Part shown: one piece after another, positions 4,345-58,883 of the stretch
Layout of the letters: every line of letters starts with the position of its first letter
Numbering within the stretch: the stretch's first letter is position 1
DNA from: Candidatus Sungiibacteriota bacterium
Lineage (GTDB): Bacteria > Patescibacteriota > Minisyncoccia > Sungbacterales > JACQCQ01
Assembly: GCA_016201505.1 (NCBI GenBank)
Contig: JACQCQ010000002.1
Location: 76,750 to 140,749, forward strand
Direction: 5' to 3'
DNA length: 64,000 nt
Notes under the pieces: model-generated
The model's database searches: none
What the model saw: the letters and a program-made list of their open reading frames with translations, nothing else
Told to the model about the DNA's origin: nothing
Translations under genes and position numbers: made by a program

Positions 4345-5292
4345 ATGAAAAATCTTACATTTTTTATTAAACTCGGCATTTTTTTGGGATTACTATCGCT
4401 CGCTGTTTTTTTAATTTCGGCAATCGGGCATGATTCAAATTCAGCCGCGGCCGTCATTTTAGATAAGCACGCGCTGCTTGCCGGCGCGCCATCGCCGAAA
4501 ATCATTTTAGTCGGCGGATCGAATATTACTTACGGTATTGACAGCCTGCGGATAGAGCGTGATGTCGGGCGTCCCGTCGTCAACATGGGTTATTCGCTCG
4601 GCGTTGGTTTGAGGTTCGCCCTAGAGGAAGTAAAACCAGATCTGAAAAAAGGCGACGCGGTTTTAGTGATTCCCGAATACGAACAATTTCAGGATTTATT
4701 TGAAGGCAATGGCGCGATCTTAGATTTAGTGCAGTATGATCCGTCGCTTGCGCGACACATAACTTCCTGGCGGCAGGTGCGCGAGATGGTTAAATATTTC
4801 CCGAACTTTTTGCAGAATAATTTTAAACGCGGCATGGTAGAGCCTCTCTTCCGTCGTTTCGGTCTTACCATTGGAAAAAGCGAACGCCGCTACTACCGCA
4901 GTGACTTTAATGCGGCTGGCGATCTCGTCGGCTATTTAAAAGATCCCCGATCCGATTCGATCGATATATCTCGATTAAATCCGGGGTATATCAATCCCGC
5001 TGCCATCGAGGCGCTCTCGAATTTCACCGCCTTTGCCAAACAAAAAGGCGCCCCGGTCGTTTTCATCTTCCCGTCTTACAGCACACCAGCCTATCAAGAA
5101 AATAAAGATACCGTCAATGCAATCTACAAAAAGCTCCAGCAGATTCGAGATCTGGTGATACCAGACTCGCCTAGCGATTTTATATTCTCCACGGGTCAAT
5201 TATTCGACAGCAGTTATCATTTGGTTGGCGCGGGTCGCGAAGATAGAACCTCTAGAATAATCGCGAAATTAAAAACGGTTTTGGCCCATTAA
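4345..5292 (+). CDS. DltD/AlgJ-like SGNH-fold accessory protein (membrane-anchored)
   Basis: 315 aa with an N-terminal TM helix. It has the block I 'ILVGGSNITYG' and a C-terminal 'DSSYHL' (DxxH) motif. It is positioned directly after the MBOAT gene, as dltD/algJ are. Confidence 0.55.
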   Translation: MKNLTFFIKLGIFLGLLSLAVFLISAIGHDSNSAAAVILDKHALLAGAPSPKIILVGGSNITYGIDSLRIERDVGRPVVNMGYSLGVGLRFALEEVKPDLKKGDAVLVIPEYEQFQDLFEGNGAILDLVQYDPSLARHITSWRQVREMVKYFPNFLQNNFKRGMVEPLFRRFGLTIGKSERRYYRSDFNAAGDLVGYLKDPRSDSIDISRLNPGYINPAAIEALSNFTAFAKQKGAPVVFIFPSYSTPAYQENKDTVNAIYKKLQQIRDLVIPDSPSDFIFSTGQLFDSSYHLVGAGREDRTSRIIAKLKTVLAH

Positions 5293-11814: not shown

Positions 11815-13746
11815 ATGGGAGAATTAGGCGGGGTTATTACCGAAACGGCGAAAAGCCTTCAGTTCATACCGCTGTCCGAAATAAAGCGCGTCAAGAAAAG
11901 TATTCATGATCCGGTAAGCCGGGCAAAAATCTTGGCCGATATCTTTCGCCTAAACGCTCTTTATATGATTATGAATGCTGGTTCGGGCCATATCGGATCC
12001 TCATTTTCGGCGATGGATATTGTCACCTGGCTTTGGACTGAAGTTCTTAAAAATCCTAACAATGTCCGCGCCCAAGAATCGGATATTTATTTTTCCTCCA
12101 AAGGACATGACGCGCCGGGCCTCTACGCGGTGATGGCGGGCATTGGCAAGCTCGATTTTGATTTGATTCACGCACTGCGAAGAATGAACGGGTTACCGGG
12201 ACATCCGGATGTGGCAACACCGGGCATCGCCGCAAATACCGGTGCGTTGGGGATGGGAATTTCAAAAGCGAAGGGCATGGCGCTTGCGCGAAGGCTCGAA
12301 AATAAAAAGGGCACGATTTATGTCTTGACCGGCGATGGTGAATTGCAGGAAGGCCAGTTCTGGGAATCGCTTCAGCCAACGGCCAATGCAAAATTATCCG
12401 AGATTGTCGTCATCATCGATCATAATAAAATTCAGTCTGACACCTGGGTGCGCGAGACGAGTGATCTCGGCGATCTGGAATACAAGTTAAGAGCTTTTAG
12501 CTGGGAGGTCGCGCGATGTAATGGAAATGATGTTTTGGAGATAAAAGAGAAACTCGAATATTTTAGAAGTATCACTGATAAACCAAAGATGTTAATCGCC
12601 GATACGAAAAAGGGAGCTGGCGTCTCATTCATGGAGGAAGTCGCCGAAGATGGATTTTATAAATTTCATAGCGGGGCGCCTTCGCTCGGTGATTATGAGC
12701 GGGCAACGCGTGAATTGGTTGAAAAGATTAATCAGAGGCTCGGTGAGGTTTGGGTTCAGCCAATACAGATTGAAACGCGGAGCATGCCGGCTCGAACGAC
12801 CCCACAAAATCCTGAGAGGCTCGTTTCTGCCTATAGCGATGAATTGATTGCGCTCGCGAAAGAAAATAAAGACATCCTAGCGCTCGACGCCGACCTCATT
12901 TTAGACACAGGACTCATCCCATTTAAAAAACAATTTCCCGATAGATTTTTCGAGTGCGGGATTGCCGAGCAAGACATGGTCTCCACCGCGGGAGGCATGG
13001 CGCTCGCCGGGAAAATTCCGATTGTGCATTCGTTTGCTTGTTTCCTTTCAACTCGGCCGAACGAGCAGATCTATAACAATATTACGGAAAAGAAAAAGGT
13101 GATTTACGTTGCCTCGCTTGCGGGAGTTCTGCCTGCCGGTCCCGGGCACTCGCATCAATCGGTGCGCGACATTTCAGCCGTCGGCGGAATGCCGGGACTC
13201 ATCTTGATTGAGCCGGCGAATGAAGCGGAGACGAAAATGGCGCTTCGCTGGGCGGTTAATGAGAATACAGAAAGCACCTATCTTCGACTAGTCAGCATCC
13301 CATCGGAAATCAATTATAAGCTTCCGCACGCTCACCAATTGATCCGCGGGCAGGGGGTAAAGATTAAAGACGGAAATAAGGCTCTTATCATTTCGTATGG
13401 CCCCTCGATGCTGATTCAGGCAGTGAAGGCGGCGGAGATTCTCGATCGAAAAAGTATTTCAACGGCAGTCATCAATATGCCGTGGTTAAATTGTGTTGAC
13501 GCAAGTTGGCTGGAAAAAGAAATTCAGGGATTTTCGCTGGTTATGACGCTCGACGATCACTATACGAATTTTGGCCAGGGGATGCTGATTGCTGGCGAGT
13601 TGGGAAAAATAAATTTTCGAGGGAAAATTATAACACATGGTATAATGTATGAAATCCCCGCCTCGGGACAAAACACGGAAGTTTTGAAATATCACAAACT
13701 GTATGCGGAGTCTTTAGCGGCGATGGTTCAGGAAGGTATTGGATAA
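11815..13746 (+). CDS. transketolase (fused N- and C-terminal sections, TPP-dependent)
   Basis: 643 aa. It has the 'GSGHIGSSFSAMDIV' TPP-binding N-terminal motif, 'LTGDGELQEGQFWE', and a C-terminal pyrimidine/transketolase-C region. Confidence 0.7.
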   Translation: MGELGGVITETAKSLQFIPLSEIKRVKKSIHDPVSRAKILADIFRLNALYMIMNAGSGHIGSSFSAMDIVTWLWTEVLKNPNNVRAQESDIYFSSKGHDAPGLYAVMAGIGKLDFDLIHALRRMNGLPGHPDVATPGIAANTGALGMGISKAKGMALARRLENKKGTIYVLTGDGELQEGQFWESLQPTANAKLSEIVVIIDHNKIQSDTWVRETSDLGDLEYKLRAFSWEVARCNGNDVLEIKEKLEYFRSITDKPKMLIADTKKGAGVSFMEEVAEDGFYKFHSGAPSLGDYERATRELVEKINQRLGEVWVQPIQIETRSMPARTTPQNPERLVSAYSDELIALAKENKDILALDADLILDTGLIPFKKQFPDRFFECGIAEQDMVSTAGGMALAGKIPIVHSFACFLSTRPNEQIYNNITEKKKVIYVASLAGVLPAGPGHSHQSVRDISAVGGMPGLILIEPANEAETKMALRWAVNENTESTYLRLVSIPSEINYKLPHAHQLIRGQGVKIKDGNKALIISYGPSMLIQAVKAAEILDRKSISTAVINMPWLNCVDASWLEKEIQGFSLVMTLDDHYTNFGQGMLIAGELGKINFRGKIITHGIMYEIPASGQNTEVLKYHKLYAESLAAMVQEGIG

Positions 13747-14317: not shown

Positions 14318-14479
14318 TTTTTTTGGGGCTTACATTCTCATGGCTCCAGCAGTCGGGTTCGTTTTTGTCCGCCGCACGAGTGCAGCAGCCGCTTATTTTT
14401 TCACTAGACATTTTAGCCGAATCTGGTATTTTAACGCTGAAACAAAGTCGGTTGTATTTTCGTTGTAGATTGTAAAAGG

Positions 14480-16347: not shown

Positions 16348-18569
16348 TGAATTCAGGCAGGACTCTTGAGATCTGGCTTTCCAATATCGTGAAATGGGGC
16401 CTGTTTTTGATTTTGCCCCTGCCGCTGGTGGTTTGGGGCATCTTTTTATTTCCCTATATCACCGGGCGCAATTTTTTATTTCGCATCTTGATTGAAATTT
16501 TGGCGGCCCTGTGGGTCGGGCTGCTGGTTCTTTCTAAAACCTATCGGCCGCGGCTTACCTGGCTGACGCGCGCGGTCGCGGTCTTTCTGTTTGTCGTGAC
16601 CCTGGCTGACTTGTTCGGCATTAATCCCTATCGCAGTTTTTGGTCGAACAACGAACGCATGGAGGGGCTTATCGCTTTACTCCATATGGTGCTGTTTTAT
16701 TTCATTGCGAGTTCGGTATTTAGAAAGTACACGCACTGGAAAGCGTTTTTCTACACCTCAACGGCTATAAGCTTGTTGGTCGCGCTCTATGGGCTCGCGC
16801 AGAAATTCGGCCTGGCTCAATCTATCCAAGGCGGTACGCGCGTTGATGGAACGATCGGCAATCCGGATTATTTAGCCTCCTATTTGATGTTCCATATTTT
16901 CTTCTTACTCTTTTTTCTCTGGCGTGAACGAATTGCGTTGCTGCGGTGGTTTTCATGGGCGGTGATCGTCTTCGAATTCTACATTATTTATTTAACGGCC
17001 ACGCGGGGGGTTGTGCTCGCCATGCTCACGGCTTTCGGCCTGGTGACAATCGTATTTGCCATCCGCAGGCCGAAAGATCGGGTTGAAAACATTTTACGCC
17101 GGGTTTCTATATCGGCACTCGCCGTCATCATAATCGCGGTCGGTTCAATTTTTCTTCTGCGCCACGACCCGCGTATTTTACAAAATCCGGTGCTTTCGCG
17201 ATTCGCTACCATTTCGACTCAAGATCGGACCGTTCAGTCGCGATTTTTTATATGGCATATCGCTTGGCAGGGAGTAAAAGAGCATCCCGTGCTCGGCTGG
17301 GGTCAGGAGAACTTCTATTACGTGTTTAATAAATATTTTGATCCGCATCTCTGGTCATCGGAGCCGTGGTTCGATCGGTCACACGACATTTTCTTCGACT
17401 GGCTGATTCACGCCGGCGTCTTGGGGCTTCTTTCATATCTTTCGGTTCTGGCCGCCGGGTTTTACACCATCTGGCGGGCGCAAAAGCTAGAGGCGATCTC
17501 TTTCTATGAGATGATGATCCTGGGAGGTGTCTTGCTCGCCTATTTCCTGCAGAATATTTTTGTCTTTGATAATTTCCAGACGTACTTCTTATTGTTTGTA
17601 ACCTTAGGCTTTGCCGAGTTTCTAATACTCCGCGGCGAGGAAAGTAAAACACTGATGGCCCCAGTCGTGCCAAATCGGCTGCCTATGGCGCTTGGTATAA
17701 CATCCGGCGCAGGCATTGTTACACTCATTCTCATTTACCTCTTGAATGTAAAGCCCATGATCGCGTCAGCCGATTTGATCGGTGCATTGCAATTGCAAAG
17801 CCAGCACGCTTCCGTCAACGATGTAAAAGCCCAGTTTCAAAAGGTCTACGATGCGGATACCTTTGTCAGCGGCGAGGCAACGGAGCAGTTAGCCGCCATG
17901 GTACGAGGGGTATTGTCGTCAGCTACGCCGCAGGATGCCAAAAGTTTTATTGACTTTGCTGTTCTCCACCTGCAGGATCTTACTAATATAGCAAATCCGG
18001 ATGCGAAACACCTGCTTTTCCTTGGTTCTGCTTTTAACACGGGCGTCCGATTCGATCAGGCCTATGCCCAAAAGGCTCTCGATGCTCTCAATAAGGCTAA
18101 AAACCTGGCACCCCAAAAACAGCAGATTTATTTTGAACTAGCGAACACGTATTTGATCGCGGGGAATTTAAATGACGCCATCCAGACTCTGCAGCGGGTA
18201 GTGGATCTTGACCCAGCCTACCCAGGGGCAGAGTTAAATCTCGGCATTGTGGCGCTGCTTGCCGCTAGACGCGATATTGCCGATCCGGCCATCGCGAGAT
18301 ACGAAAGTCTTCCCAAAGCGCCGGACGCCAGTGAATTAGAGAGGCTCGTCCAGGTGTATATTCAGGTGAGCGATATGAAAGGCGCGAGACGTGTCATGGA
18401 AGAACTGTTGAAAATCGATGACCGCAACTCACAGTATTGGGCTCAATATGCCGCTATCCTGGCTGCACTGGGCGATAAGACTGACGCCAAAACGGCTGCG
18501 GAAAAAGCGGCCGAAATCGATCCCAGTCTCAACACCGAACTGCAGCAGTTTTTGAAGACGCTTAAATAA
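16347..18569 (+). CDS. O-antigen ligase/polymerase (Wzy_C)-like polytopic membrane protein with C-terminal TPR repeats
   Basis: About 740 aa with many TM helices and a 'TATRGVVLAMLTAFGLV' Wzy_C-like block. The C-terminal 250 aa are TPR-like. The ORF-track start at 16236 lies inside the repeat array, so the ATG at 16347 is preferred. Confidence 0.6.
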   Translation: MNSGRTLEIWLSNIVKWGLFLILPLPLVVWGIFLFPYITGRNFLFRILIEILAALWVGLLVLSKTYRPRLTWLTRAVAVFLFVVTLADLFGINPYRSFWSNNERMEGLIALLHMVLFYFIASSVFRKYTHWKAFFYTSTAISLLVALYGLAQKFGLAQSIQGGTRVDGTIGNPDYLASYLMFHIFFLLFFLWRERIALLRWFSWAVIVFEFYIIYLTATRGVVLAMLTAFGLVTIVFAIRRPKDRVENILRRVSISALAVIIIAVGSIFLLRHDPRILQNPVLSRFATISTQDRTVQSRFFIWHIAWQGVKEHPVLGWGQENFYYVFNKYFDPHLWSSEPWFDRSHDIFFDWLIHAGVLGLLSYLSVLAAGFYTIWRAQKLEAISFYEMMILGGVLLAYFLQNIFVFDNFQTYFLLFVTLGFAEFLILRGEESKTLMAPVVPNRLPMALGITSGAGIVTLILIYLLNVKPMIASADLIGALQLQSQHASVNDVKAQFQKVYDADTFVSGEATEQLAAMVRGVLSSATPQDAKSFIDFAVLHLQDLTNIANPDAKHLLFLGSAFNTGVRFDQAYAQKALDALNKAKNLAPQKQQIYFELANTYLIAGNLNDAIQTLQRVVDLDPAYPGAELNLGIVALLAARRDIADPAIARYESLPKAPDASELERLVQVYIQVSDMKGARRVMEELLKIDDRNSQYWAQYAAILAALGDKTDAKTAAEKAAEIDPSLNTELQQFLKTLK

Positions 18570-49689: not shown

Positions 49690-50438
49690 GCGGGTTACGA
49701 GTCTATCCAAGAGTCAGCTTGACTTGCATTACGCTACTATAGTAGTATTTCTGAAGCTAGATTAAGGTAATTATTCGAAGCTATTTGATCAAATGCAAAC
49801 GTACTTCCAATTGAATACCACTGCGGCCTCGGATGAAAGAACATAAGCCCCTCTCGTAGGGAGACTTAGGTAGATGAGGTCGCCGGAAGGCGATTTTTCG
49901 TTCGAACGTCTTTTTAAAAACATTTGATTTCCCACCGAGAAATCAGATTCGCCACTCTCCTCGCGATCGCTTCGCGAACCGTGGTCGCTTCGTCGAGTGA
50001 GCGTTCTAAAAAGATATTCTTCACTTGAGCTTCGTAGGAAAGGTCGCTTCGCTCCCCACATTCAAGAAGTTGGAGATGACGACTAGTTAACTAGAAAACT
50101 AGAAAACTAATCGGTGTCTCTGAAAACGTTTTCGTACGCTTACGGAAAAAGTAGGAGGCAAGATTTTTGACATAAGGCTAATAATTGCAAAAGGGTAATA
50201 AACCGATGCTTCGCATCGGAATGTCTAATTTTCAATTTCTAATTTCTAAACTTTTTACGCCACATCGCTTCATTAGAAATTAGGTATTAGGAATTTGGAA
50301 TTTCCGATGCGGAGCATCGGAAAATTGTATTTTCAGTAAACTCTTTGGAGTTTATTGAAGCGTGATTCGATACAAATTTGTTATGTACCTGAATTGTGGA
50401 ATGTAGAAGTAACTAGACGAGAAGAGGGGAGACACTCT

Positions 50439-50675
50439 ATGACGATCGAAGCAGTGCGGAATCTGGAGAAGCGTCTCGGCGACGTAATCCATGTGGAGCT
50501 TGAGAAATTCTCGCGGCAGCACGCTTTCGTGGAGGGGCGCGGCTGGCTCTTGAAGGACGCTGACCACCACCTTCTTTTCCGGACGTCGCAGCAGATGGCT
50601 AGGGTGGCAGCTGGTATCTGCGCTCATCTCTGCACAGAGCGCCAGCCAATCTCGAAGCCGAGAAGAAGCACGTAG
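50439..50675 (+). CDS. hypothetical 78-aa GC-rich ORF in the rRNA leader region
   Basis: An RBS-like 'gagggga' precedes it. No motif. It may be non-coding leader sequence. Confidence 0.2.
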   Translation: MTIEAVRNLEKRLGDVIHVELEKFSRQHAFVEGRGWLLKDADHHLLFRTSQQMARVAAGICAHLCTERQPISKPRRST

Positions 50676-51133
50676 CGTTCATCATGGGGAAGGTCAGTAC
50701 GACTTCCCCTCCACAATTCAGGTACATACAAACATAAGTCGAATCGCAAATGGTTCGGCAGGCTCACCACAAGTGAATCTGTCGAACTTTCTCTCGATGA
50801 TTCTTGAGACTCGTAATTACATTACTTGTCCCGAGCGAAGTCGAGGGATCTCACTCGTTCTCTGATGAATGTCAGAGGACAAGAAAATAAAAAGCGGTTA
50901 TTAAGGGCGCATGGTGGATGCCTTGGCTTTAAACAGCGATGAAGGACGTAGCGTGCTTGCGATAAGCATCGGGGAGGTGGCGAGCAACCTTTGATCCGGT
51001 GATGTCCGAATGGGGAAACCCTAGGGGAGTAATGTTCCCTAACCCGTCGTGTAATAGCGATGTGGAGTCAACCTGGTGAAGTGAAACATCTCAGTAACCA
51101 GAGGAAAAGAAAACAAGTTGCTTCGCAACTTTT

Positions 51134-51203
51134 ATCAGCGAATAGCGAATCCCGTACGAATAAGCGAATTCGTTTATTCGAAAAGATTCGTAATTCGTTG
51201 ATG
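51134..51203 (+). repeat. IVS hairpin element copy A (71 nt)
   Basis: The sequence is atcagcgaatagcgaatcccgtacgaataagcgaattcgtttattcgaaaagattcgtaattcgttgatga. It is identical to the copy at 55191–55261. Confidence 0.75.
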
Positions 51204-51610
51204 ATCGAGCGCAGTGAACATTCCGTCAGTAGCGGCGAGCGAACGCGGAACAGCCTAGAGGAATCAGTTTGCTAGTTTACTAGTTCGCTGGTTCCAGTTG
51301 TAAGTTTAGTTCGTAAAAGAGCAATCTTTTGAAGAGTGTAAAAATTAAGACTTCGTTAGGAGAATGGTCCTGGAACGGCCAACCACAGAAGGTAATAGTC
51401 CTGTACACGAAAACGGTCTTATACTCTTGGAACTTTACTTGAGTACTGCCCAGTATGACGACTGGGTAGGAAGCAGGGAGAACTAGTCTCCCAAGGCTAA
51501 ATATGTTTAAAGACCGATAGTGAACCAGTACCGTGAGGGAAAGGTGAAAAGCAGCCCGGTGAGGGCGGTGAAATAGTACCTGAAACCATGTGCTTACAAG
51601 GAGTCGGAGC

Positions 51611-52110
51611 TCGCTTCGCTGACGAAGCGGTAGATTCAAAATCTTAAAACTGCAAAATCAAATATTTCCTTTTGTGTATCTGAATTGAAAAAATAAGGAG
51701 GTGTCAATGGCATACCCCCAAGATGAAATCGCACGCCTGCGGGAAATGCTGCGGCTTGATCAGATGTCGCCGGAAGAGCTGGTACGGTTTCTTAAACTGT
51801 TTTGGGAGATTACGGAGAGCAAGGTTCTCGAGCGCGGCGCCGAAGGCAAGGATGTCTTTAACGCCGGGTTGGCTGAATGGCTGCTCACGATTGCTGTAGT
51901 TGCCATCGTGCGGTCTTTTATTGATCGCGCTGACAAGAGAGCGATTGTCCGAACCCTCAAAGCCTCGTTACCGGCGAAGATTTGGGAAGTTTGCCGGCCG
52001 CTTTGCGAGCCCTTGCTCTCAATTCCCGGGGAGTGATCCGTCAGCCGACGGACTCCCCGTTCAATTCAGATACATAAAAATAGTTTTGAATTTTGTAGTT
52101 TAGTTTTTAA
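51611..52110 (+). mobile_element. helix-25 intervening sequence carrying a 110-aa ORF, flanked by perfect 12-bp inverted repeat gtatctgaattg / caattcagatac
   Basis: The insertion follows 'cttacaaggagtcggagc', the classic H25 IVS site. The inverted repeats lie at 51682–51693 and 52060–52071. Confidence 0.6.
51707..52036 (+). CDS. hypothetical 110-aa protein encoded inside 23S rRNA IVS (MAYPQDEIARLREML…)
   Basis: It has a strong RBS (AAGGAGG, 5 nt spacer). It is followed by the hairpin gatccgtcagccgacggactcccc. No known homing-endonuclease motif. Confidence 0.45.
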   Translation: MAYPQDEIARLREMLRLDQMSPEELVRFLKLFWEITESKVLERGAEGKDVFNAGLAEWLLTIAVVAIVRSFIDRADKRAIVRTLKASLPAKIWEVCRPLCEPLLSIPGE

Positions 52111-52389
52111 ATTTAGCGACGCGTCAGCGGAGCGAGTAACGGCATGCCTATTGAAGAATGAGCCAACGAGTGTATGGAGATTGCTTGCTTAACCCCGCCC
52201 TTTGCGCAGTAGCGCAAAAGGCGGAACTGACAGTCTACAGTCTACCGACTACAGCAGATGTTGTTGTTCATGCGGTAGTCAGTAGTCCGTGGTCAGTAGT
52301 CCGCCCCTTGTTAGTGAACAAAGGACGGGGGGAGGCGCAGGGAAACCGAGTGTTAACAGCGCGTAAGCACCTCACTTTGTTCGGTGCCT

Positions 52390-52461
52390 ATCAGCGAATA
52401 TCGAATCCAAAACGAATAAACGAATTCGTTTATTCGAAAAAGATTTGTAATTCGTTGATGA
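52390..52461 (+). repeat. IVS hairpin element copy B (~90% identical to A)
   Basis: atcagcgaatatcgaatccaaaacgaataaacgaattcgtttattcgaaaaagatttgtaattcgttgatga. Confidence 0.7.
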
Positions 52462-53030
52462 CCGAGCGAAGCGAGGCTGCATGTAGTCTTCATACGACCC
52501 GAAACCAAGTGAGCTACCCATGGGCAGGGTGAACTTTGAGTAACATCAAAGGGAGGCCCGAACCGGTTGGTCGTACAACGCCTTCGGATGACCTGTGGGT
52601 TGGAGTGAAAAGCTAATCGAACTTGGAAATAGCTGGTTCTCTTCGAAATAGCTTTAGGGCTAGCGTCAAATCACACCGTAATGGAGGTAGAGCACTGGAT
52701 GGACTGTAATGGGGCAACCCAGGCAGTCCAATCAAACTCCGAATGCCGTTACGCGTTATTTTGGCAGTCAGCAGGCGGGGGCTAAGCTCCGTCGTGCAAG
52801 AGGGAAACAGCCCAGACCGCCGATTAAGGTCCCTAAATCAATGCTAAGTGTATAAGGCGGTGGAATTTTTAAAACAGCGAGGAGGTTGGCTTAGAAGCAG
52901 CCATCCTTTAAAGAGTGCGTAACAGCTCACTCGTCAAAAGATTCTGCGCCACAAATGTAGCGGGGCTAAGCATTGTACCGAAGTCGCGGGTTGCGCGCTT
53001 CACTTTTGTTCAGCGCGCTCATCATCGAAT

Positions 53031-53116
53031 AGCGAATCACGAACGAATAAACGAATCACCATAACCGTATTCGTATATTCGCAGCAAATTCGTTATTCGC
53101 TGATAGAGCGCCGAGC
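53031..53116 (+). repeat. helix-45 IVS hairpin (diverged palindromic variant)
   Basis: The sequence is atcatcgaatagcgaatcacgaacgaataaacgaat…attcgttattcgctgatag. It lies at the canonical H45 IVS position, between 'gaagtcgcgggttgcg' and 'gagcgccgagcagc'. Confidence 0.6.
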
Positions 53117-54034
53117 AGCAGCGAGGCGCGTAACGGTAGAAGAGCATTTGCATCAGCAGTGAAGGAGGACCCGCGAGGGCCTCTGGAGCGGTGCGAAGAG
53201 AGAATGTTGGCACTAGTAACCGCAAGTTAGGTGAGAATCCTAACCGCCGAAAGTCCAAGGTTTCCTTGGCAATGCTAATCAGCTAAGGGTTAGTCGGTCC
53301 TAAGGGAATGGTGAAAACCGCACCCGATGGATACACGGTTAATATTCCGTGACTCGAGTTTTGATCGATGGCGGGACGGAGCGTTGTACATTCTATGGAT
53401 TATTGGATTTCCATTTCTGTTATGAGGAAAGCGCGTAGGCAAATCCGCGCGCTGGGTTAGACCCGCTTCCAAGTAATGGGATAATGCGTTTCTTCGGATT
53501 CGCAAATAGAAAGGAGCACGCTTCCCAGAAAAACGTCTAAGATTATCTTGACTCGAACCGTACCGCAAACCGACACAGGTGGACTAGTGGAGAACACTAA
53601 GGCGAACGGGTGAGACCTCGTTAAGGAACTCGGCAAAAAAGCGGCCGTAAGTTCGCAATAAGGCCTGCCTCATTGAGGCTGATAGAAGGAAAGAAAGCAC
53701 TGCACAGTGTTGGTTTTTGAATTTGTGTTTTGTGCAACGTATTCTCGAAAAGCGTTTGCATTTGTTCCAGCGACAAATGCAACTCGCCAAGCTCGCAAAA
53801 ACTTTTTGTTTCGACAAAAAGACCAAGCTTTTCGCTCGCTTGAGCGTTTTCTTAAATACGTTTGCACCGATATGGATTCTTGATCGAACACTGTGCAGTG
53901 CAAAAGAGAAAGGGCAGATTTTTGCTGATGCAAAAATCTGAAACTAGAAAACTAGAGCCGCGAAAGCGGCGTAACTAGAAAACTATAGTTGTAACTCTGA
54001 ATTGCGGAGTTAAATAGTTCGCTGGGGAAAAGGT

Positions 54035-54130
54035 ATGAACTCGCAAGGAGAAGTAACGCCACTGGCGTTGATGGGACTTGCGACCGTTTTTGCCATATAT
54101 CTTCTCTGCCAGCTCATCTGGGCGGGATAG
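54035..54130 (+). CDS. 31-aa hydrophobic mini-peptide MNSQGEVTPLALMGLATVFAIYLLCQLIWAG
   Basis: An RBS-like 'ggggaaaagg' precedes it. It lies inside the rRNA insertion. Confidence 0.3.
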   Translation: MNSQGEVTPLALMGLATVFAIYLLCQLIWAG

Positions 54131-54142
54131 TGGAGGATATGA

Positions 54143-54271
54143 ATGTCCAGGCTGGCGGCATATCCGCTGTTCCTTGTCTGTTGGACTCCGTTCATGATTG
54201 TGATCGGGTTCATCATCGGGATCATGATCGAGCGATCGGGTCGGATTCTTGCGGCCGAGGAGGAGGTATGA
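54143..54271 (+). CDS. 42-aa single-TM mini-peptide MSRLAAYPLFLVCWTPFMIVIGFIIGIMIERSGRILAAEEEV
   Basis: The RBS 'tggagga' precedes it. Its stop overlaps the next start (ATGA). Confidence 0.35.
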   Translation: MSRLAAYPLFLVCWTPFMIVIGFIIGIMIERSGRILAAEEEV

Positions 54272-54390
54272 GAACAGCCATCGGTTTTATGATCACTATT
54301 GGGATCATGGCTGCTGTTGTGATCATCGATCGGTGGTGCAAGCGGCGCCTGCCGATGCGCGGCATCTTCGGGCCGTATCGGCAGGCATAA
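54268..54390 (+). CDS. 40-aa single-TM mini-peptide MRTAIGFMITIGIMAAVVIIDRWCKRRLPMRGIFGPYRQA (paralog of previous)
   Basis: The RBS 'gaggaggagg' precedes it. It shares the 'IGF.I.IGIM' core with the upstream peptide. The hairpin gatccgtcagttgacggagactcccc follows. Confidence 0.35.
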   Translation: MRTAIGFMITIGIMAAVVIIDRWCKRRLPMRGIFGPYRQA

Positions 54391-55190
54391 GGAGACGAGG
54401 GAGTGCGATCCGTCAGTTGACGGAGACTCCCCCAACCCTACTAAAAATGTAGGGCCGCAATTCAGGGTTACAACAGGTCTAAGTTTAGGCGCGATTGCGC
54501 GAGCGAGCGGTAAGTTCTTAAAGAAAGGAGAAGTACGCGGACCGAAGAGGATCTGCCGAATCGAGGGCAGCACATGTGCATACCGGAGTAGTCGACGGTC
54601 ATTCGGCAAGACCTTACGCCCCTCCGCATAGTTCTTTGATCGCTCGTGCAAAAAAATATGGAGGGCGCAGACCTTCGGGTCTCGGTATAGGCAGGTAGCC
54701 TGCCCCTCCGCCATTCGCCAACTGGTGAAGCCAACTGGTGAAGCCAACTGGTGAACTCGAGCAGAGAGTCTCCCGCCAGGGTCTCTTCTCTGTAAAAGAT
54801 GGGCGGTCCCGCCGCCCGTTACTCGAGCACCCCAGCGGCCTCCCTAGCCCGGGGCCGCTGGGGTTCGAAAATCACTATGTCGGGCGCGACGTGAGCTCTC
54901 CTGGTAGGGGATTGCGTCGACTCACCCGGCAGAACGCGGCGGCGGTTCCCCCCGGAGCCGCCGCCGTCGTAAACACTTTTCTCTTATTTTTCTCCTCGAA
55001 ATTCGAAGTCGGATTTCGATCCTTCTATCAGCCTCTTTGAGGCCGCAGCGAAAGATTCTCTGGCGACTGTTTACCAAAAACACAGGTCCCTGCTAAACAC
55101 GTAAGTGGATGTATAGGGGCTGACGCCTGACCAATGCGAGAAGGTTAAAGATTGTGGTTGCTTCGCTCTTGCTTCGTAACATCAGCGAAT

Positions 55191-55261
55191 AGCGAATCCC
55201 GTACGAATAAGCGAATTCGTTTATTCGAAAAGATTCGTAATTCGTTGATGAAAAGCTGTGG
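55191..55261 (+). repeat. IVS hairpin element copy C (identical to copy A)
   Basis: The 71-nt sequence is identical to 51134–51203. Confidence 0.75.
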
Positions 55262-55329
55262 AGCGTGAGCGGAGCAGCTAACGGTCCCAAGCCCTCGTCA
55301 ATGTCAGCGATAACTATAAGTAACGATTG

Positions 55330-56140
55330 TAGTTATAAAATTTGGCTATATGTTCCCAATTTGTCTGCGAGCGTTAGCGAGTGGCTAACAAATCGCAATC
55401 CCGTGGCCTTACAGTCACGAGACAAAACAAATTCGGGAAACCCGAAGTCACGCCGCGCAATACGAAAGTGTTGGTTGCGGGGGAAGGCTTTGGGGACTGG
55501 AAAACCCGCGAATGCAGAAGTACTTCAATACCACGTAGTATTGAAGTAACAATCTTCTGCCGATTCGTGAAGGTAAGATGGATGTATTCCGCTCGCAATA
55601 TGAACGGATGTATCCGCCGAAGCCTTGGCGAAGGCGGACAATCAGCAGGAAAGATTCTAATTGGTAAAAATTAGAAAATCCTCAGAGACTACACGCCAAA
55701 CTCTTCAATGCACTCGAGTCTGTCGAGCTAATTGGATAGATGATATAGTCCGAACTCTATGGTGACATAGAGAGTTGACCCGAGAGAGGGTCAGAGTAAC
55801 ACTAAATGAATCGTTCTAAGGTGAATAACACTGCCTTAGTAAAATCTAGCTATATCGGTGAACACCTTACACTTTAATACTTTAAAGTATTAAAGTGTAA
55901 GACAATACCGAGGCAACCCCGCCAAAATTTTGCACGAGCAAAACTTAGGCGGGTGAGTCCGTAGAGACTACACGCTAGACTCCAATCCGCAGTTGGCGGA
56001 GGAGAAGATATAGTCCGGCCTCTATGGCGACATAGAGAGATGCAGAGAAATCGTGCATCCGGATTCATGATTCATAATTCTTGCTTGCCCTTCCGTAGCT
56101 CTAGAGAGCAAAGGAGGGATTCATGATTCTAGTAACAATT
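55330..56140 (+). mobile_element. ~0.8-kb ORF-less insertion (group I intron-like) at the 23S 1917–1931 (I-CeuI site) region
   Basis: It interrupts 'taactataa | …gcgtaattccttgtcgggtaag'. It contains an internal ~100-nt duplication (55680–55800 versus 55958–56060). It also contains the 36-bp perfect palindrome cttacactttaatactttaaagtattaaagtgtaag (55866–55901). Confidence 0.45.
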
Positions 56141-56739
56141 CGAGCGTAATTCCTTGTCGGGTAAGTTCCGACGTGCACGAAAGGCGTAACGACTGGAGAA
56201 CTGTCTCAACGAGGTGCCCGGTGAAAATACAATATCGGTGAAGATGCCGATTACCCACAGATAGACGAAAAGACCCCGGGAGCTTTACTGCAGCTTGATA
56301 TTGGCAATGAATACTTTATGCGTAGCATAGATGGGAGACTTTGAAGTCGTGGTTTCGGCCATGATGGAGTCGCCAGTGAAATACCATTCTTAAAGAATTC
56401 TTTGTCTAACTTGTAGAGACGAAACTCTATGCAGACAGTGTCTGGCGGGCAGTTTAAGTGGGGCACTTGCCTCCCAAAAAGTAATGGAGGCGTTTATTAA
56501 GGTTGGCTAGCGCCGGATGGAAATCGGCGTCGTCCCGTAAAGGGAAATGCCAGCTTGACTGCAAGGCGGGTATGCCGCGCAGGTGCGAAAGCAGAACTTA
56601 GTGATCCGATGGCTATGGTTGTTTAGTTTACTAGTTTCGGTCTTTATTGACCTACTGGTTTTCTAGTTTTCGAACTAGTTAACTAGAAAACTGGTGAACT
56701 GATCAATTTCTTGCTAGAACAAGGCCAAAGCTCATCAGC

Positions 56740-56770
<31 letters not shown>

Positions 56771-56903
56771 GCTTCCAAGAGTTCATATCGACGAAGCGGT
56801 TCGGCACCTCGATGTCGGCTCGGCTTATCCTGGAGGTGGAGAAGCTTCCAAGGGTTTGGCTGTTCGCCAATTAAAAAGTCACGCGAGCTGGGTTCAAACC
56901 GTC

Positions 56904-57741
56904 AACAAAAGAACCCGAAAATGACATCGAAACATTCAACAAGTTTTTGATAGGAGCTTGTTTGAAACACACGGCGGCCCCTGGTAGCAATGCCGGGGAG
57001 CGAAACCCGTAGAATCCCAAGGGGGTCCGGGTAAGAAAACCGACTCATATCGATGAAATCCACGTATGCATTCAACCTGTCATATGTTAGGATAATATCG
57101 AGGGAAGTCGTGTATGTTGCAATCGTTAACGCAAAATCAAAGGGCATATATTGCAGGTTTTCTTGATGGAGATGGAAGCATTTATGTGCGAGCAAAACCA
57201 AACCCTACTTATCGGTTTGGCTTTCAAATTGCTCCATATATAGTATTTTTCCAGTCACAATCTAGTCAGGAAAGATTTGGGGAGATATGCAAGTTGATTA
57301 GCGTGGGACATTTACGCATTCGAAGTGACGGTATTCTTGAGTACATCATAAATCGTATTGATGAAATCAAGATGTTGCTGGAATGTGTTCGTCCCTTCGC
57401 AATTCTCAAAAGGCGACAGATAGATTTGATGTTGAAAATAATTGAATCAAAGTCGCAAGTAGAGAACGAAGACGATTTTGAGAAACTTCTTCAACTAGTA
57501 AATTCTTATCGAGAATTAAACTATTCTAAGAAGAGAAAGCAACGTTCATTGACCCCGTAGAGACTTGTCGTGAAAGCGGCAGAGTAATTCAGAAATGATT
57601 TGCTAACACGTCGGTCACCCATTAAATGTAGATACTGTTTAATGGGTTGGTGGTATAGTCCAATCCCTCTAGTAATAGAGGAAGGTTAAGCATTTAGTAA
57701 CCTTAATTCTTGACTCTAAATTCTTAATTCTAGTAAACAGC
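56904..57741 (+). mobile_element. group I-type intron at 23S position 2593 (I-CreI homing site) encoding a LAGLIDADG endonuclease
   Basis: The exon junction is 'gggttcaaaccgtc | gtgagacaggttgg', which corresponds to the E. coli sequence AACGTC^GTGAGACAG. Confidence 0.7.
57114..57560 (+). CDS. single-motif LAGLIDADG homing endonuclease, I-CreI-like
   Basis: The motif is 'YIAGFLDGDGSIYVRAKPNPTYRFGFQ'. Overall similarity extends to I-CreI ('LAGFVDGDGSIIAQIKPNQSYKFKHQ…LVLKIIE' versus 'IDLMLKIIE'). Confidence 0.8.
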   Translation: MLQSLTQNQRAYIAGFLDGDGSIYVRAKPNPTYRFGFQIAPYIVFFQSQSSQERFGEICKLISVGHLRIRSDGILEYIINRIDEIKMLLECVRPFAILKRRQIDLMLKIIESKSQVENEDDFEKLLQLVNSYRELNYSKKRKQRSLTP

Positions 57742-57883
57742 GTGAGACAGGTTGGTCTCCTATCTTCTGTGGGCGTAGAAATTTGAGAGGGCTTCTGGAC
57801 AGTACGAGAGGACCTTCAGGAACAAACCTCTGGTGTACCAGCTGTTCCGCCAGGAGCATCGCTGGGTAGCTATGTTTGGTTGT

Positions 57884-57914
<31 letters not shown>

Positions 57915-58294
57915 ACGCCTCAAGATAAGATTTCATAGATCCCTGAGAGATTATCAGGTTGATAGGGTGCAGGTGTACATGGAGTAATCCATTCAGCCGA
58001 GCACTACTAATAGATCATCACCACTTTTTATTTTCCTTTGCCCGCCGAAGCGTTATGCGACGGCAGGACGGTGAGAATAATACAATTCTTGCCCGCCTAA
58101 GTTTTTCGTTAGAAAAATTTTGGCGGGGTTTATTACCCTTTTGCAGTTATTAGCTTTGAATGTGCGTTTCTCCAAAATAAAACTTGCCGACCTCGAACGC
58201 GCCGGACTCGGCCGCGAGGTCTGAGAGGGAAAGGAGAGCCTCTAAGCTCTTATCCTACCCTCTCTCTAACACCGAGTTTCGTATTTTAAAATTC

Positions 58295-58336
58295 CATCTA
58301 GTACAATATATCCGATCGGATATATTGTACTAGATG
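58295..58336. repeat. 42-bp perfect palindrome catctagtacaatatatccgatcggatatattgtactagatg in 23S–5S spacer
   Basis: Read directly. Confidence 0.8.
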
Positions 58337-58500
58337 AGTGAGGAATAATAGATAGCAATAATATAAAGCATTGTTTTGGTGGCTTACAGGTACGTGGCAC
58401 CACCCCCGCCTGCGCTAAGGCTTCGGCGGGTAAGCCTTTCTCTGCTACACAACGCAGTTGTGCCACGGGACTTAGCATTCCGACTGTGCCCCGTACCAAA

Positions 58501-58621
58501 TTTGCTATTTGCTGGTGTCTTTCATCTTTTGGGTACCACCCCTTCCCATTCCGAACAGGGCCGTTAAACCAAAAGTAGCCGATGATACTCGGAGGTTTAG
58601 CCTCCCGGGAAAGTAGGTGAT
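58501..58621 (+). rRNA. rrf: 5S ribosomal RNA
   Basis: '…gggtaccaccccttcccattccgaacagggccgttaaacc…gccgatgatactcggagg…gggaaagtaggtgatgccagcat' aligns with the 5S consensus. This includes helix I pairing of gctggtg with caccagc. Confidence 0.6.
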
Positions 58622-58883
58622 GCCAGCATATAAAAGATTTGGTTCGGGGACCCCGAGCAATCGCTCCCGCGATATTTGGAGGCAGGGGGCAGGGTCTCAC
58701 TTCGGAAAGCATAGCAGGGCGAAGTCCCGCATCGAGCTTTGCTCTGGTGCGGGATAGCTGCCGCCAGAACAATGCTTTTTATTTTTCCCACGAAGTGGGA
58801 AAAATAACCCTGAGCGCAGTTGAAGGGTCACACTATTCTCATTATTCCTAATTCCTGATTCATAATTCATAATGAAGGGCATG

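Follow-up and report, generated by a model that had tools for sequence, protein, structure and literature searches.

The locus discussed here raises the question of what nearly half a kilobase of DNA, complete with an open reading frame (ORF), is doing inside helix 25 (H25) of a 23S ribosomal RNA gene. It lies in a window, the whole stretch of 64,000 nucleotides that was analysed (contig JACQCQ010000002.1, positions 76,750 to 140,749), which comes from a metagenome-assembled genome (MAG) of Candidatus Sungbacteria, members of the Parcubacteria in the Candidate Phyla Radiation (CPR); the ORF, called ORF B below, is on a contig of 211 kb. The H25 insertion is a real, small gene cassette nested in an older AT-rich hairpin, and its ends recur on nine other cassettes of differing content. 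Taken together, the evidence makes it probable that the insertion is a promoterless small-gene cassette, co-transcribed with the rRNA and released by RNase III, in a composite of two nested palindromic elements. Coordinates are window positions unless a locus of a relative is named, and the 23S gene, the parts of the H25 insertion and the other cassettes of the window are all on the forward (+) strand.

The cassette in helix 25

An earlier note, made from the letters of the window, had placed the insertion at the classic H25 site of intervening sequences (IVSs), and the alignments agree: Escherichia coli 23S position 546 (Ec546; E. coli positions are written in this way throughout) corresponds to window position 51616, and Infernal cmscan leaves 486 nt (51632-52117) unaligned to the large-subunit (LSU) model within the H25 hairpin. 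The perfect 12-bp inverted repeat that the note described is present as well (GTATCTGAATTG at 51676-51687 and CAATTCAGATAC at 52062-52073); it extends to 20 nt at 95% and lies at the heart of a ~80-bp closing helix, in which 51609-51689 pairs with 52060-52136 in the minimum free energy (MFE) and centroid folds and in a blastn self-match. The 5' strand of this helix (51609-51689) consists of an outer AT-rich arm at 51612-51670 (base CGCTTCGCTGACGAAGCG) and then the start of the cassette arm at 51671-51689, while the 3' strand (52060-52136) consists of most of the cassette arm at 52060-52078 followed by the outer arm at 52079-52134 (base GCGACGCGTCAGCGGAGCG). The cassette itself is bounded by a left end, TTTGTGTATCTGAATTGAAAAA (51671-51692), which includes the 12-mer and the invariant core CTGAATTG, and a right end, CCGTTCAATTCAGATACATAAA (52057-52078), which includes the partner 12-mer. 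A chance origin is unlikely, because shuffling the 900-nt neighbourhood 3000 times gave a perfect inverted repeat of at least 12 bp only 47 times (1.6%), the whole insertion folds with an MFE of -233.7 kcal/mol (z = -9.9), and the same ends recur elsewhere.

Between the ends, the elements of a small gene follow one another closely. The textbook ribosome-binding site noted for the ORF reads as a Shine-Dalgarno (SD) sequence AAGGAGG at 51695-51701, separated by 5 nt from an ATG at 51707, and the downstream hairpin of the note, GGGGAGTGATCCGTCAGCCGACGGACTCCCC, is found at 52028-52058 as a GC-rich 3' structure (GGGGAG-UGA-UCCGUC-AGCC-GACGGA-CUCCCC) that overlaps the stop codon and has no U-tract after it. 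A selenocysteine insertion sequence (SECIS), in which a UGA is followed by a hairpin, was considered and set aside, as the hairpin is not linked to a UGA in other cassette copies; the Sungbacteria clade is not known to use selenocysteine. A group I intron was likewise rejected: an Rfam search of 51620-52125 at E<=10 returned a chance malK-I match only, with no group I core, and the ORF has no LAGLIDADG, GIY-YIG or HNH match in Pfam.

ORF B (51707-52036), annotated at NCBI as the hypothetical protein HY220_00715, had been given as 110 aa; the ORF is there, and it encodes 109 aa if read from the ATG and 111 aa if an upstream GTG is taken as the start. Two further statements about its product hold, namely that by sequence it is not the four-helix-bundle IVS protein (23S_rRNA_IVP/S23p, PF05635, is not matched in Pfam at E<=1, and NCBIfam gives nothing) and that it bears no homing-endonuclease motif, Pfam being without a match at the same threshold. 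PHROGs, PADLOC and the sequences of the PDB also yielded no match to ORF B. Two eukaryotic matches from a phmmer search of 1.84 billion representative proteins are tandem-repeat artefacts and not homologues. The AlphaFold check proposed for the protein gave, as a single-sequence AlphaFold2 prediction, a moderately confident all-helical model of five helices (pLDDT, the predicted local distance difference test, 77; pTM, the predicted template modelling score, 0.65), with no significant neighbour in a structure search; residues 50-68 form a hydrophobic helix (Kyte-Doolittle hydropathy 2.0).

Several signs in the sequence nevertheless indicate that ORF B is coding. Its codon-usage score is 0.352 bits per codon in frame vs 0.305+-0.047 for 26 host genes, the other five frames reach at most 0.147 bits per codon, and its GC content by codon position (0.63/0.40/0.62) is like that of the host (0.55/0.39/0.54). 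Shuffling the cassette interior yields an ORF of such length in 2.5% of cases.

The nesting of the cassette becomes apparent from its outer arms. These arms (51612-51670 and 52079-52134) are ~80% identical, including an exact 19-mer, to a palindromic insertion in two related loci, L045 and L056 (loci of relatives and of other matches carry such L numbers), where it begins just after Ec130, in the helix 9 area, and thus occupies a different 23S site from H25. Because the outer arms belong to another palindromic family, the GC-rich cassette can be seen to sit at the apex of an older IVS-type hairpin. Five relatives have at H25 an AT-rich hairpin of 150-176 nt (38-43% GC) with no ORF, and the window alone carries an ORF cassette there, a sporadic presence. 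The cassette interior has 55% GC vs 48% for the window. A separate AT-rich palindromic element is found in the 23S leader of the window at 50203-50320, clamped by the mini-hairpins CCGATGCTTCGCATCGG and CCGATGCGGAGCATCGG; in L031, H25 (12597-12750) is filled by an element whose 5' clamp is nearly identical and whose 3' clamp is a variant, CCGCTGCGGAGCAGCGG, and variants of this clamped element occupy H25 and the leader in other relatives.

A family with shared ends

Ten distinct cassettes share the common ends; the window holds three of them, and five related Sungbacteria and Parcubacteria lineages together hold the other seven. The relatives were fetched via the syntenic mechanosensitive-channel gene adjoining the rRNA operon, and further ones were found by scanning metagenomes for the left cassette end. 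In the window, the core CTGAATTG...CAATTCAG bounds three units, A, B (the H25 cassette) and C. The family ends form a ~20-bp terminal helix, in which (G)TTGTGTAYCTGAATTGTGGAG is paired with its complement, and the layout runs from the left arm through an SD-bearing 5' leader, one to three small ORFs and a GC-rich hairpin to the right arm. This SD-ORF-hairpin layout fills the entire interior in 10 of 10 cassettes; a GC-rich 3' hairpin, varying in sequence, is at this position in nine of them, and four (winC, which is cassette C of the window, L031a, L034b and L045) have a conserved leader, TyrAATAGyTCryTGAGGAGG.

Cassette A (50380-50730) precedes the mature 5' end of the 23S, within the leader, and is bounded by a perfect 19-bp inverted repeat; it comprises an SD at 50424-50431, an orphan ORF of 78 aa at 50439-50675 (HY220_00710) and a hairpin at 50686-50709. 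Cassette C (53988-54474) is housed in a 1.33-kb insertion of the helix 63 (H63) region, and the kinship between the H63 and H25 cassettes proposed in the earlier note is borne out by its sharing GATCCGTCAGYYGACGGA and the family ends. Each of its three tandem ORFs (54035-54130, 54143-54271 and 54268-54390) is preceded by an SD and encodes a small hydrophobic peptide (31, 42 and 40 aa, respectively); the last two ORFs overlap in ATGA, and the hairpin of the cassette is at 54399-54431.

The cargo in the relatives is as varied. L031 has a leader cassette encoding a 69-aa protein with two transmembrane (TM) segments and, at 4776-5009, a second cassette with a 45-aa TM peptide, outside the rRNA operon and downstream of a gene resembling those of type IV secretion systems (T4SS). 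The leader cassette of L034 encodes 58 aa with a DUF397 domain (25.6 bits vs a Pfam cut-off of 24), and a further cassette of the same locus (16863-17503), in the Ec1854-1932 region, encodes 84 and 95 aa, the same site in L044 having the 95-aa ORF only. A 76-aa ORF occupies the leader cassette of L045/L056, and a 112-aa ORF (KKW28804.1) the H63-region cassette of L052/L053. Among the cargo proteins, relatedness was found solely for the 95-aa ORFs of L034 and L044, which align without gaps at 70.5% identity with a ratio of nonsynonymous to synonymous substitution rates (dN/dS) of 0.25; the L052 cargo keeps its length of 112 aa in 15 of 15 aligned members from a 25-member cluster. ORF B itself and the L052 cargo share 35% identity over 52 aa in BLASTP (pairwise E = 3e-4), with a probability of 37% in hhalign, and in tblastn over all loci their match is at E ~1, among chance matches. 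Just past the right cassette end in L052 (15043-15195), outside the inverted repeats and inside the H63-region insertion, an SD-led ORF encodes a 50-aa hydrophobic peptide.

The 19-mer of the left end occurs at 8 loci in the metagenome collection, the matches in L040, L042 and L046 being chance ones without a partner arm; a pattern of hairpin plus right end gave 0 matches in that collection, the viral contigs hold no real cassette copy, and the further relatives L048-L051 and L063-L066 have no cassette. The 3' hairpin was tried as a family marker and discarded: TCCGTCAGNNGACGGA..CTCCCC occurs at 27 loci, none with cassette ends, and the other cassettes use different hairpins, so that the position of the hairpin is diagnostic and its sequence is not. 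As an observation apart, genomes of Kazan (4 copies), Terriglobia, Armatimonadota and Marinimicrobia contain multi-copy palindromic repeats built around GGGAG-TCCGTCAGCCGACGGA-CTCCC, the hairpin that cassettes B and C share (L004-L030; examples are L010 274, L013, L025, L028; L007, L016; and L011, L012, L026, L029). The 27 loci, which come from these groups and others, compare with an estimated ~3 by chance.

The shared ends permit a test of whether the conserved object is DNA or RNA. Across the 22 terminal pairs of the 10 cassettes, 90.9% are paired and 9 pairs have compensatory changes, whereas shifted registers give 25-42% pairing; the covariation measures were reached by 0 of 500 shuffles. 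The central 8 bp are invariant, and in columns 3-19 every one of the 7 cells that depart from Watson-Crick pairing reads G·U or U·G on the sense strand, with A·C at 0 (binomial probability ~0.008 by our own calculation). Because a strand-symmetric constraint on DNA would give G·U and A·C equally, the substitution pattern shows that the ends behave as an RNA helix.

All cassettes read in the same direction as the host transcript (sense), at no fewer than five independent sites. The idea of an internal promoter was dropped after a scan found no sigma-70-like promoter inside any cassette. A GGAGG-like SD precedes every cassette ORF, whereas among the long ORFs of the window outside 50000-58800 an SD-like 4-mer is found at the first start codon in ~2 of 32. 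In several host genes a TACAAT-like box stands a few bases ahead of the ATG, suggesting that initiation is leaderless or does not depend on an SD.

So far, cassettes are known from H25, from the H63 and Ec1854-1932 regions, from two different positions in the 23S leader and from one intergenic site (L031). At the leader site, L031, L034 and L045 share ~40 nt of flank on each side around interiors that are unalignable, while a small hairpin is all that L052 and L037 have there; the leader copy of the window has the same extended arms (TTCGATACAAATTT...) and lies upstream of the conserved TCTCACTCGTTC block, not after it. The H63-region cassettes of the window and L052 have a variant arm in common (GTTGTAAC/GTTGTAGC...GGGTTACAAC) but different cargo. 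Different cargo at the same site between conserved ends fits recombination through the ends, as judged from these comparisons, better than repeated transposition.

Competing explanations

How might such a cassette work? The outer element would be the long AT-rich hairpin typical of classical IVS sites in the 23S genes of this clade, with the 0.4-kb cassette at its apex, and the cassette would be passively transcribed within the rRNA precursor or another host transcript. Its ends, lengthened by the outer palindrome, would then form a long perfect double-stranded RNA to be cut by RNase III, as in the classical H25/H45 IVSs. Such cleavage would rid the 23S rRNA of the insert, leaving it functional in two pieces, and would free a small mRNA on which the SD could support internal initiation and the 3' hairpin could slow decay. 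The 109-aa product would be a real, lineage-restricted small helical protein, possibly membrane-associated, and the cassettes would be accessory or selfish cargo that spreads and exchanges its contents via the conserved ends.

Several observations weigh against this account of a co-transcribed and translated cassette. ORF B is an orphan, matching itself only in a word-indexed search of 5.8 billion protein clusters, so that selection on it is not measurable; ORFs of at least 100 codons arise in 2.5% of shuffles of the cassette interior; and the ORF of cassette A has no codon-usage signal. In Coxiella, the IVS ORF is apparently untranslated and the excised RNA is quickly degraded (PMC4990558). 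Given that host genes rarely use an SD, the SD of the cassettes may reflect foreign origin and not use in this cell. Finally, no copy is flanked by a direct repeat indicative of a target-site duplication, and comparison with sites that are empty or hold other contents revealed no clean duplication either; neither a recombinase nor a transposase was found in the sampled neighbourhoods of the cassettes.

The first four of these points, together with the ORF-less hairpins at H25 of the relatives, are what one would expect if the insertion were a non-coding IVS or expansion segment, whose hairpin is either removed and degraded or left in place, tolerated at the ribosome surface, and whose ORF is fortuitous or decaying and never translated. 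We regard this as unlikely, though it deserves to be taken seriously. The codon usage of ORF B is frame-specific and host-like; a perfect SD at ideal spacing stands in a genome that rarely uses one; the SD-ORF-hairpin arrangement takes up the interior of every cassette; sister cargo shows purifying selection and, in one case, a Pfam domain; and the ATGA overlap in cassette C is like that of translational coupling.

That the cassettes are DNA transposons of the miniature inverted-repeat transposable element (MITE) type, with passenger genes and with inverted repeats bound by a transposase encoded elsewhere, would render the RNA pairing and any RNase III cleavage incidental. Speaking for such elements are the conserved inverted ends of 20-37 nt, whose 8-bp core is invariant and which recur at six or more unrelated sites (one beyond the rRNA operon), and a composition unlike the surroundings; transposition has, moreover, long been proposed as the source of the inverted repeats of classical IVSs, which would be its relics (PMC4990558). 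The missing target-site duplications tell against a transposon, and neither the window nor ~0.4 Mb of related DNA yielded a transposase-bearing partner with the same ends. Arm mismatches that are G·U on the sense strand only are unexpected under a strand-symmetric DNA constraint, all copies are sense-oriented, and different cargo at one site is better explained by exchange than by repeated transposition. A transposon of this kind is therefore an improbable explanation.

A third proposal concerns the cargo: small toxins or membrane-active peptides (type I toxin-like, bacteriocin or immunity proteins, or holin-like) for which the rRNA site would give very high, growth-coupled expression. Five of 13 distinct cargo ORFs encode hydrophobic peptides of 31-69 aa, and the hydrophobic helix of ORF B is in keeping with this; the other cargo proteins, however, are soluble and acidic, PADLOC, PHROGs, Pfam and NCBIfam are without a match, and no antitoxin, small RNA (sRNA) or partner is evident, all of which leaves the proposal with very little credence. 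An assembly chimera, which a MAG source and a repeat-rich region might bring to mind, can be dismissed, since the independent Logan assemblies of two runs (SRR12113409 and SRR12113410) match 51560-52653 at 100% identity, over both junctions, and the same architecture is present in independent assemblies of relatives (NCBI, ENA, JGI and Logan).

Returning to the co-transcribed cassette as the probable reading, a bolder extension may be offered tentatively. The rRNA operon of Sungbacteria and related Parcubacteria could harbour a cassette-exchange system, in which a conserved ~20-bp helix with the invariant core CUGAAUUG/CAAUUCAG provides fixed docking sites and small SD-led genes are swapped in and out, transcribed from the strongest promoter of the cell and cut out by RNase III as mRNAs; we consider this possible and, on present evidence, still doubtful.

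The interrupted 23S gene, known systems and significance

The gene that harbours the cassettes (50889-58050, the 3' end being approximate) is ~7.1 kb long owing to at least 8 insertions. The LSU match in Rfam covers 50889-57015 and stops there, though the gene runs to ~58050, because an 838-nt insertion at Ec2593/2594 (56904-57740) intervenes; the blastn map to E. coli rrlH reaches beyond that insertion to Ec2803 at 57949, and the 5S rRNA follows at 58511-58628. The insertion at Ec2593/2594, a classic intron site, carries a single-domain LAGLIDADG ORF at 57114-57560 (LAGLIDADG_1 in Pfam at 1.2e-8), which served as a positive control, in the same gene, for the homing-endonuclease search. Apart from this and the insertions at H25 (after Ec546, placed by the rrlH map and Infernal) and in the H63 region (between Ec1704 and Ec1770), the rrlH map places ~100 nt after Ec227, an extra hairpin before Ec617, ~115 nt after Ec652, ~130 nt between Ec1163 and Ec1560, 0.9 kb between Ec1854 and Ec1932 (55149-56142) and ~100 nt after Ec2400. 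In the 0.9-kb insertion, the ORF-cassette ends were not found in the window, whereas L034 and L044 have an ORF cassette in that region; the window insertion has an internal direct repeat (55679-55777/55958-56042) at a spacing of ~265-280 nt.

Other repeats add to the complexity of this region. A ~71-nt self-complementary element, ATCAGCGAATAGCGAATCC...TTCGTTGATGA, has four copies at four separate places in the 23S gene (51134-51204, 52390-52460, 53020-53106 and 55181-55251), two of them 100% identical, and explains several of the ~100-nt insertions. A perfect 42-nt palindrome, CATCTAGTACAATATATCCGA / TCGGATATATTGTACTAGATG, lies at 58295-58336, past the 3' end of the 23S gene and ahead of the 5S rRNA. 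ARAGORN found no tRNA gene in the window; in the relatives, it found tRNA genes in L031 at 13074-13241 (Thr-TGT and Ile-GAT) and in L034 at 13287-13361 (Gly-GCC), both within a ~0.7-kb 23S insertion between E. coli positions ~652 and 669, and a tRNA-Cys (GCA) in L048 at 14334-14399, ~290 nt past Ec1704.

IVSs in 23S genes have been known since 1990, with their origin, their mobility and the role of their ORFs unresolved. Those at H9, H25 and H45 are bounded by inverted repeats and cut by RNase III within the stem, and some contain an ORF (PMC4990558). The insertion of the window resembles the classical IVSs of Salmonella, Leptospira, Coxiella, Yersinia, Campylobacter and alphaproteobacteria in its H25 site, where a stem-loop stands in place of the helix tip, in terminal inverted repeats that form a long helix, in its sporadic presence among relatives and a composition unlike the host, and, as in Leptospira, Coxiella and Brucella, in an internal ORF (PMC4990558). 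It differs in that its ORF does not match S23p/23S_rRNA_IVP, in being nested in a second palindromic element, in ends that also enclose many different cargos elsewhere (at further rRNA sites, within the leader and beyond the operon), and in a strong SD, as against the poor one of Coxiella.

The heavily interrupted 23S gene of the window follows a pattern known for CPR bacteria. The survey of CPR rRNA insertions by Tsurumaki et al. (2024, PMC11270868) treats the same phenomenon in the same clade, and reports that 82% of CPR 23S genes have insertions, about half of them group I introns. In that survey (PMC11270868), the H25/H45-type sites, 23IS2 and 23IS4, are interpreted as RNase III-type IVS sites, and 'uncharacterized' insertions of 500-1000 bp are noted; the LAGLIDADG insertion of the window at position 2593 is the same typical one. 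The ORFs were annotated there by Pfam only, which would leave ORFs like ORF B uncharacterised, and the survey is without a shared-end cassette family, nesting or cargo exchange.

Likeness to mobile elements goes only part of the way. Like MITEs and palindrome-associated elements, the cassettes are short, multi-copy, non-autonomous, bounded by inverted repeats and inserted in or beside palindromes; they differ by intact SD-led ORFs, by the lack of a detected target-site duplication and by arm variation that follows RNA pairing rules. With integron cassettes and pdif (Xer) modules there is an analogy only, in promoterless small genes with conserved ends, an outside promoter and cargo that varies per site, whereas the cassettes described here are solitary, not arrayed, and have no integrase or Xer context in the sampled neighbourhoods. 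The core sites of integron attC are RYYYAAC and GTTRRRY. An attC identity was rejected by eye, as the ends GTTGTGT... and ...ACACAAC misfit these cores. It follows that IVSs with inverted repeats and an ORF, and CPR rRNA insertions as such, are known already, and that a cassette family with shared ends and exchangeable cargo is previously undescribed: a full-text literature search found none, nor any description of nesting in older palindromes, of leader or extra-operon copies, of covariation in the ends or of SD-led ORFs in an SD-poor genome.

Insertions in rRNA genes are much commoner in CPR bacteria than in other bacteria, and roughly half of those in CPR bacteria are neither introns nor annotated. 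The H25 locus provides a concrete, testable model for a part of these uncharacterised insertions. Should the tentative exchange system prove true, it would be integron-like in function and yet built on rRNA processing, in hosts whose own genes are largely SD-poor. If excision and translation hold, the rRNA operon would be an expression platform for accessory genes, and the conserved helix would become a search key for cassettes and small proteins in these uncultured episymbiotic bacteria.

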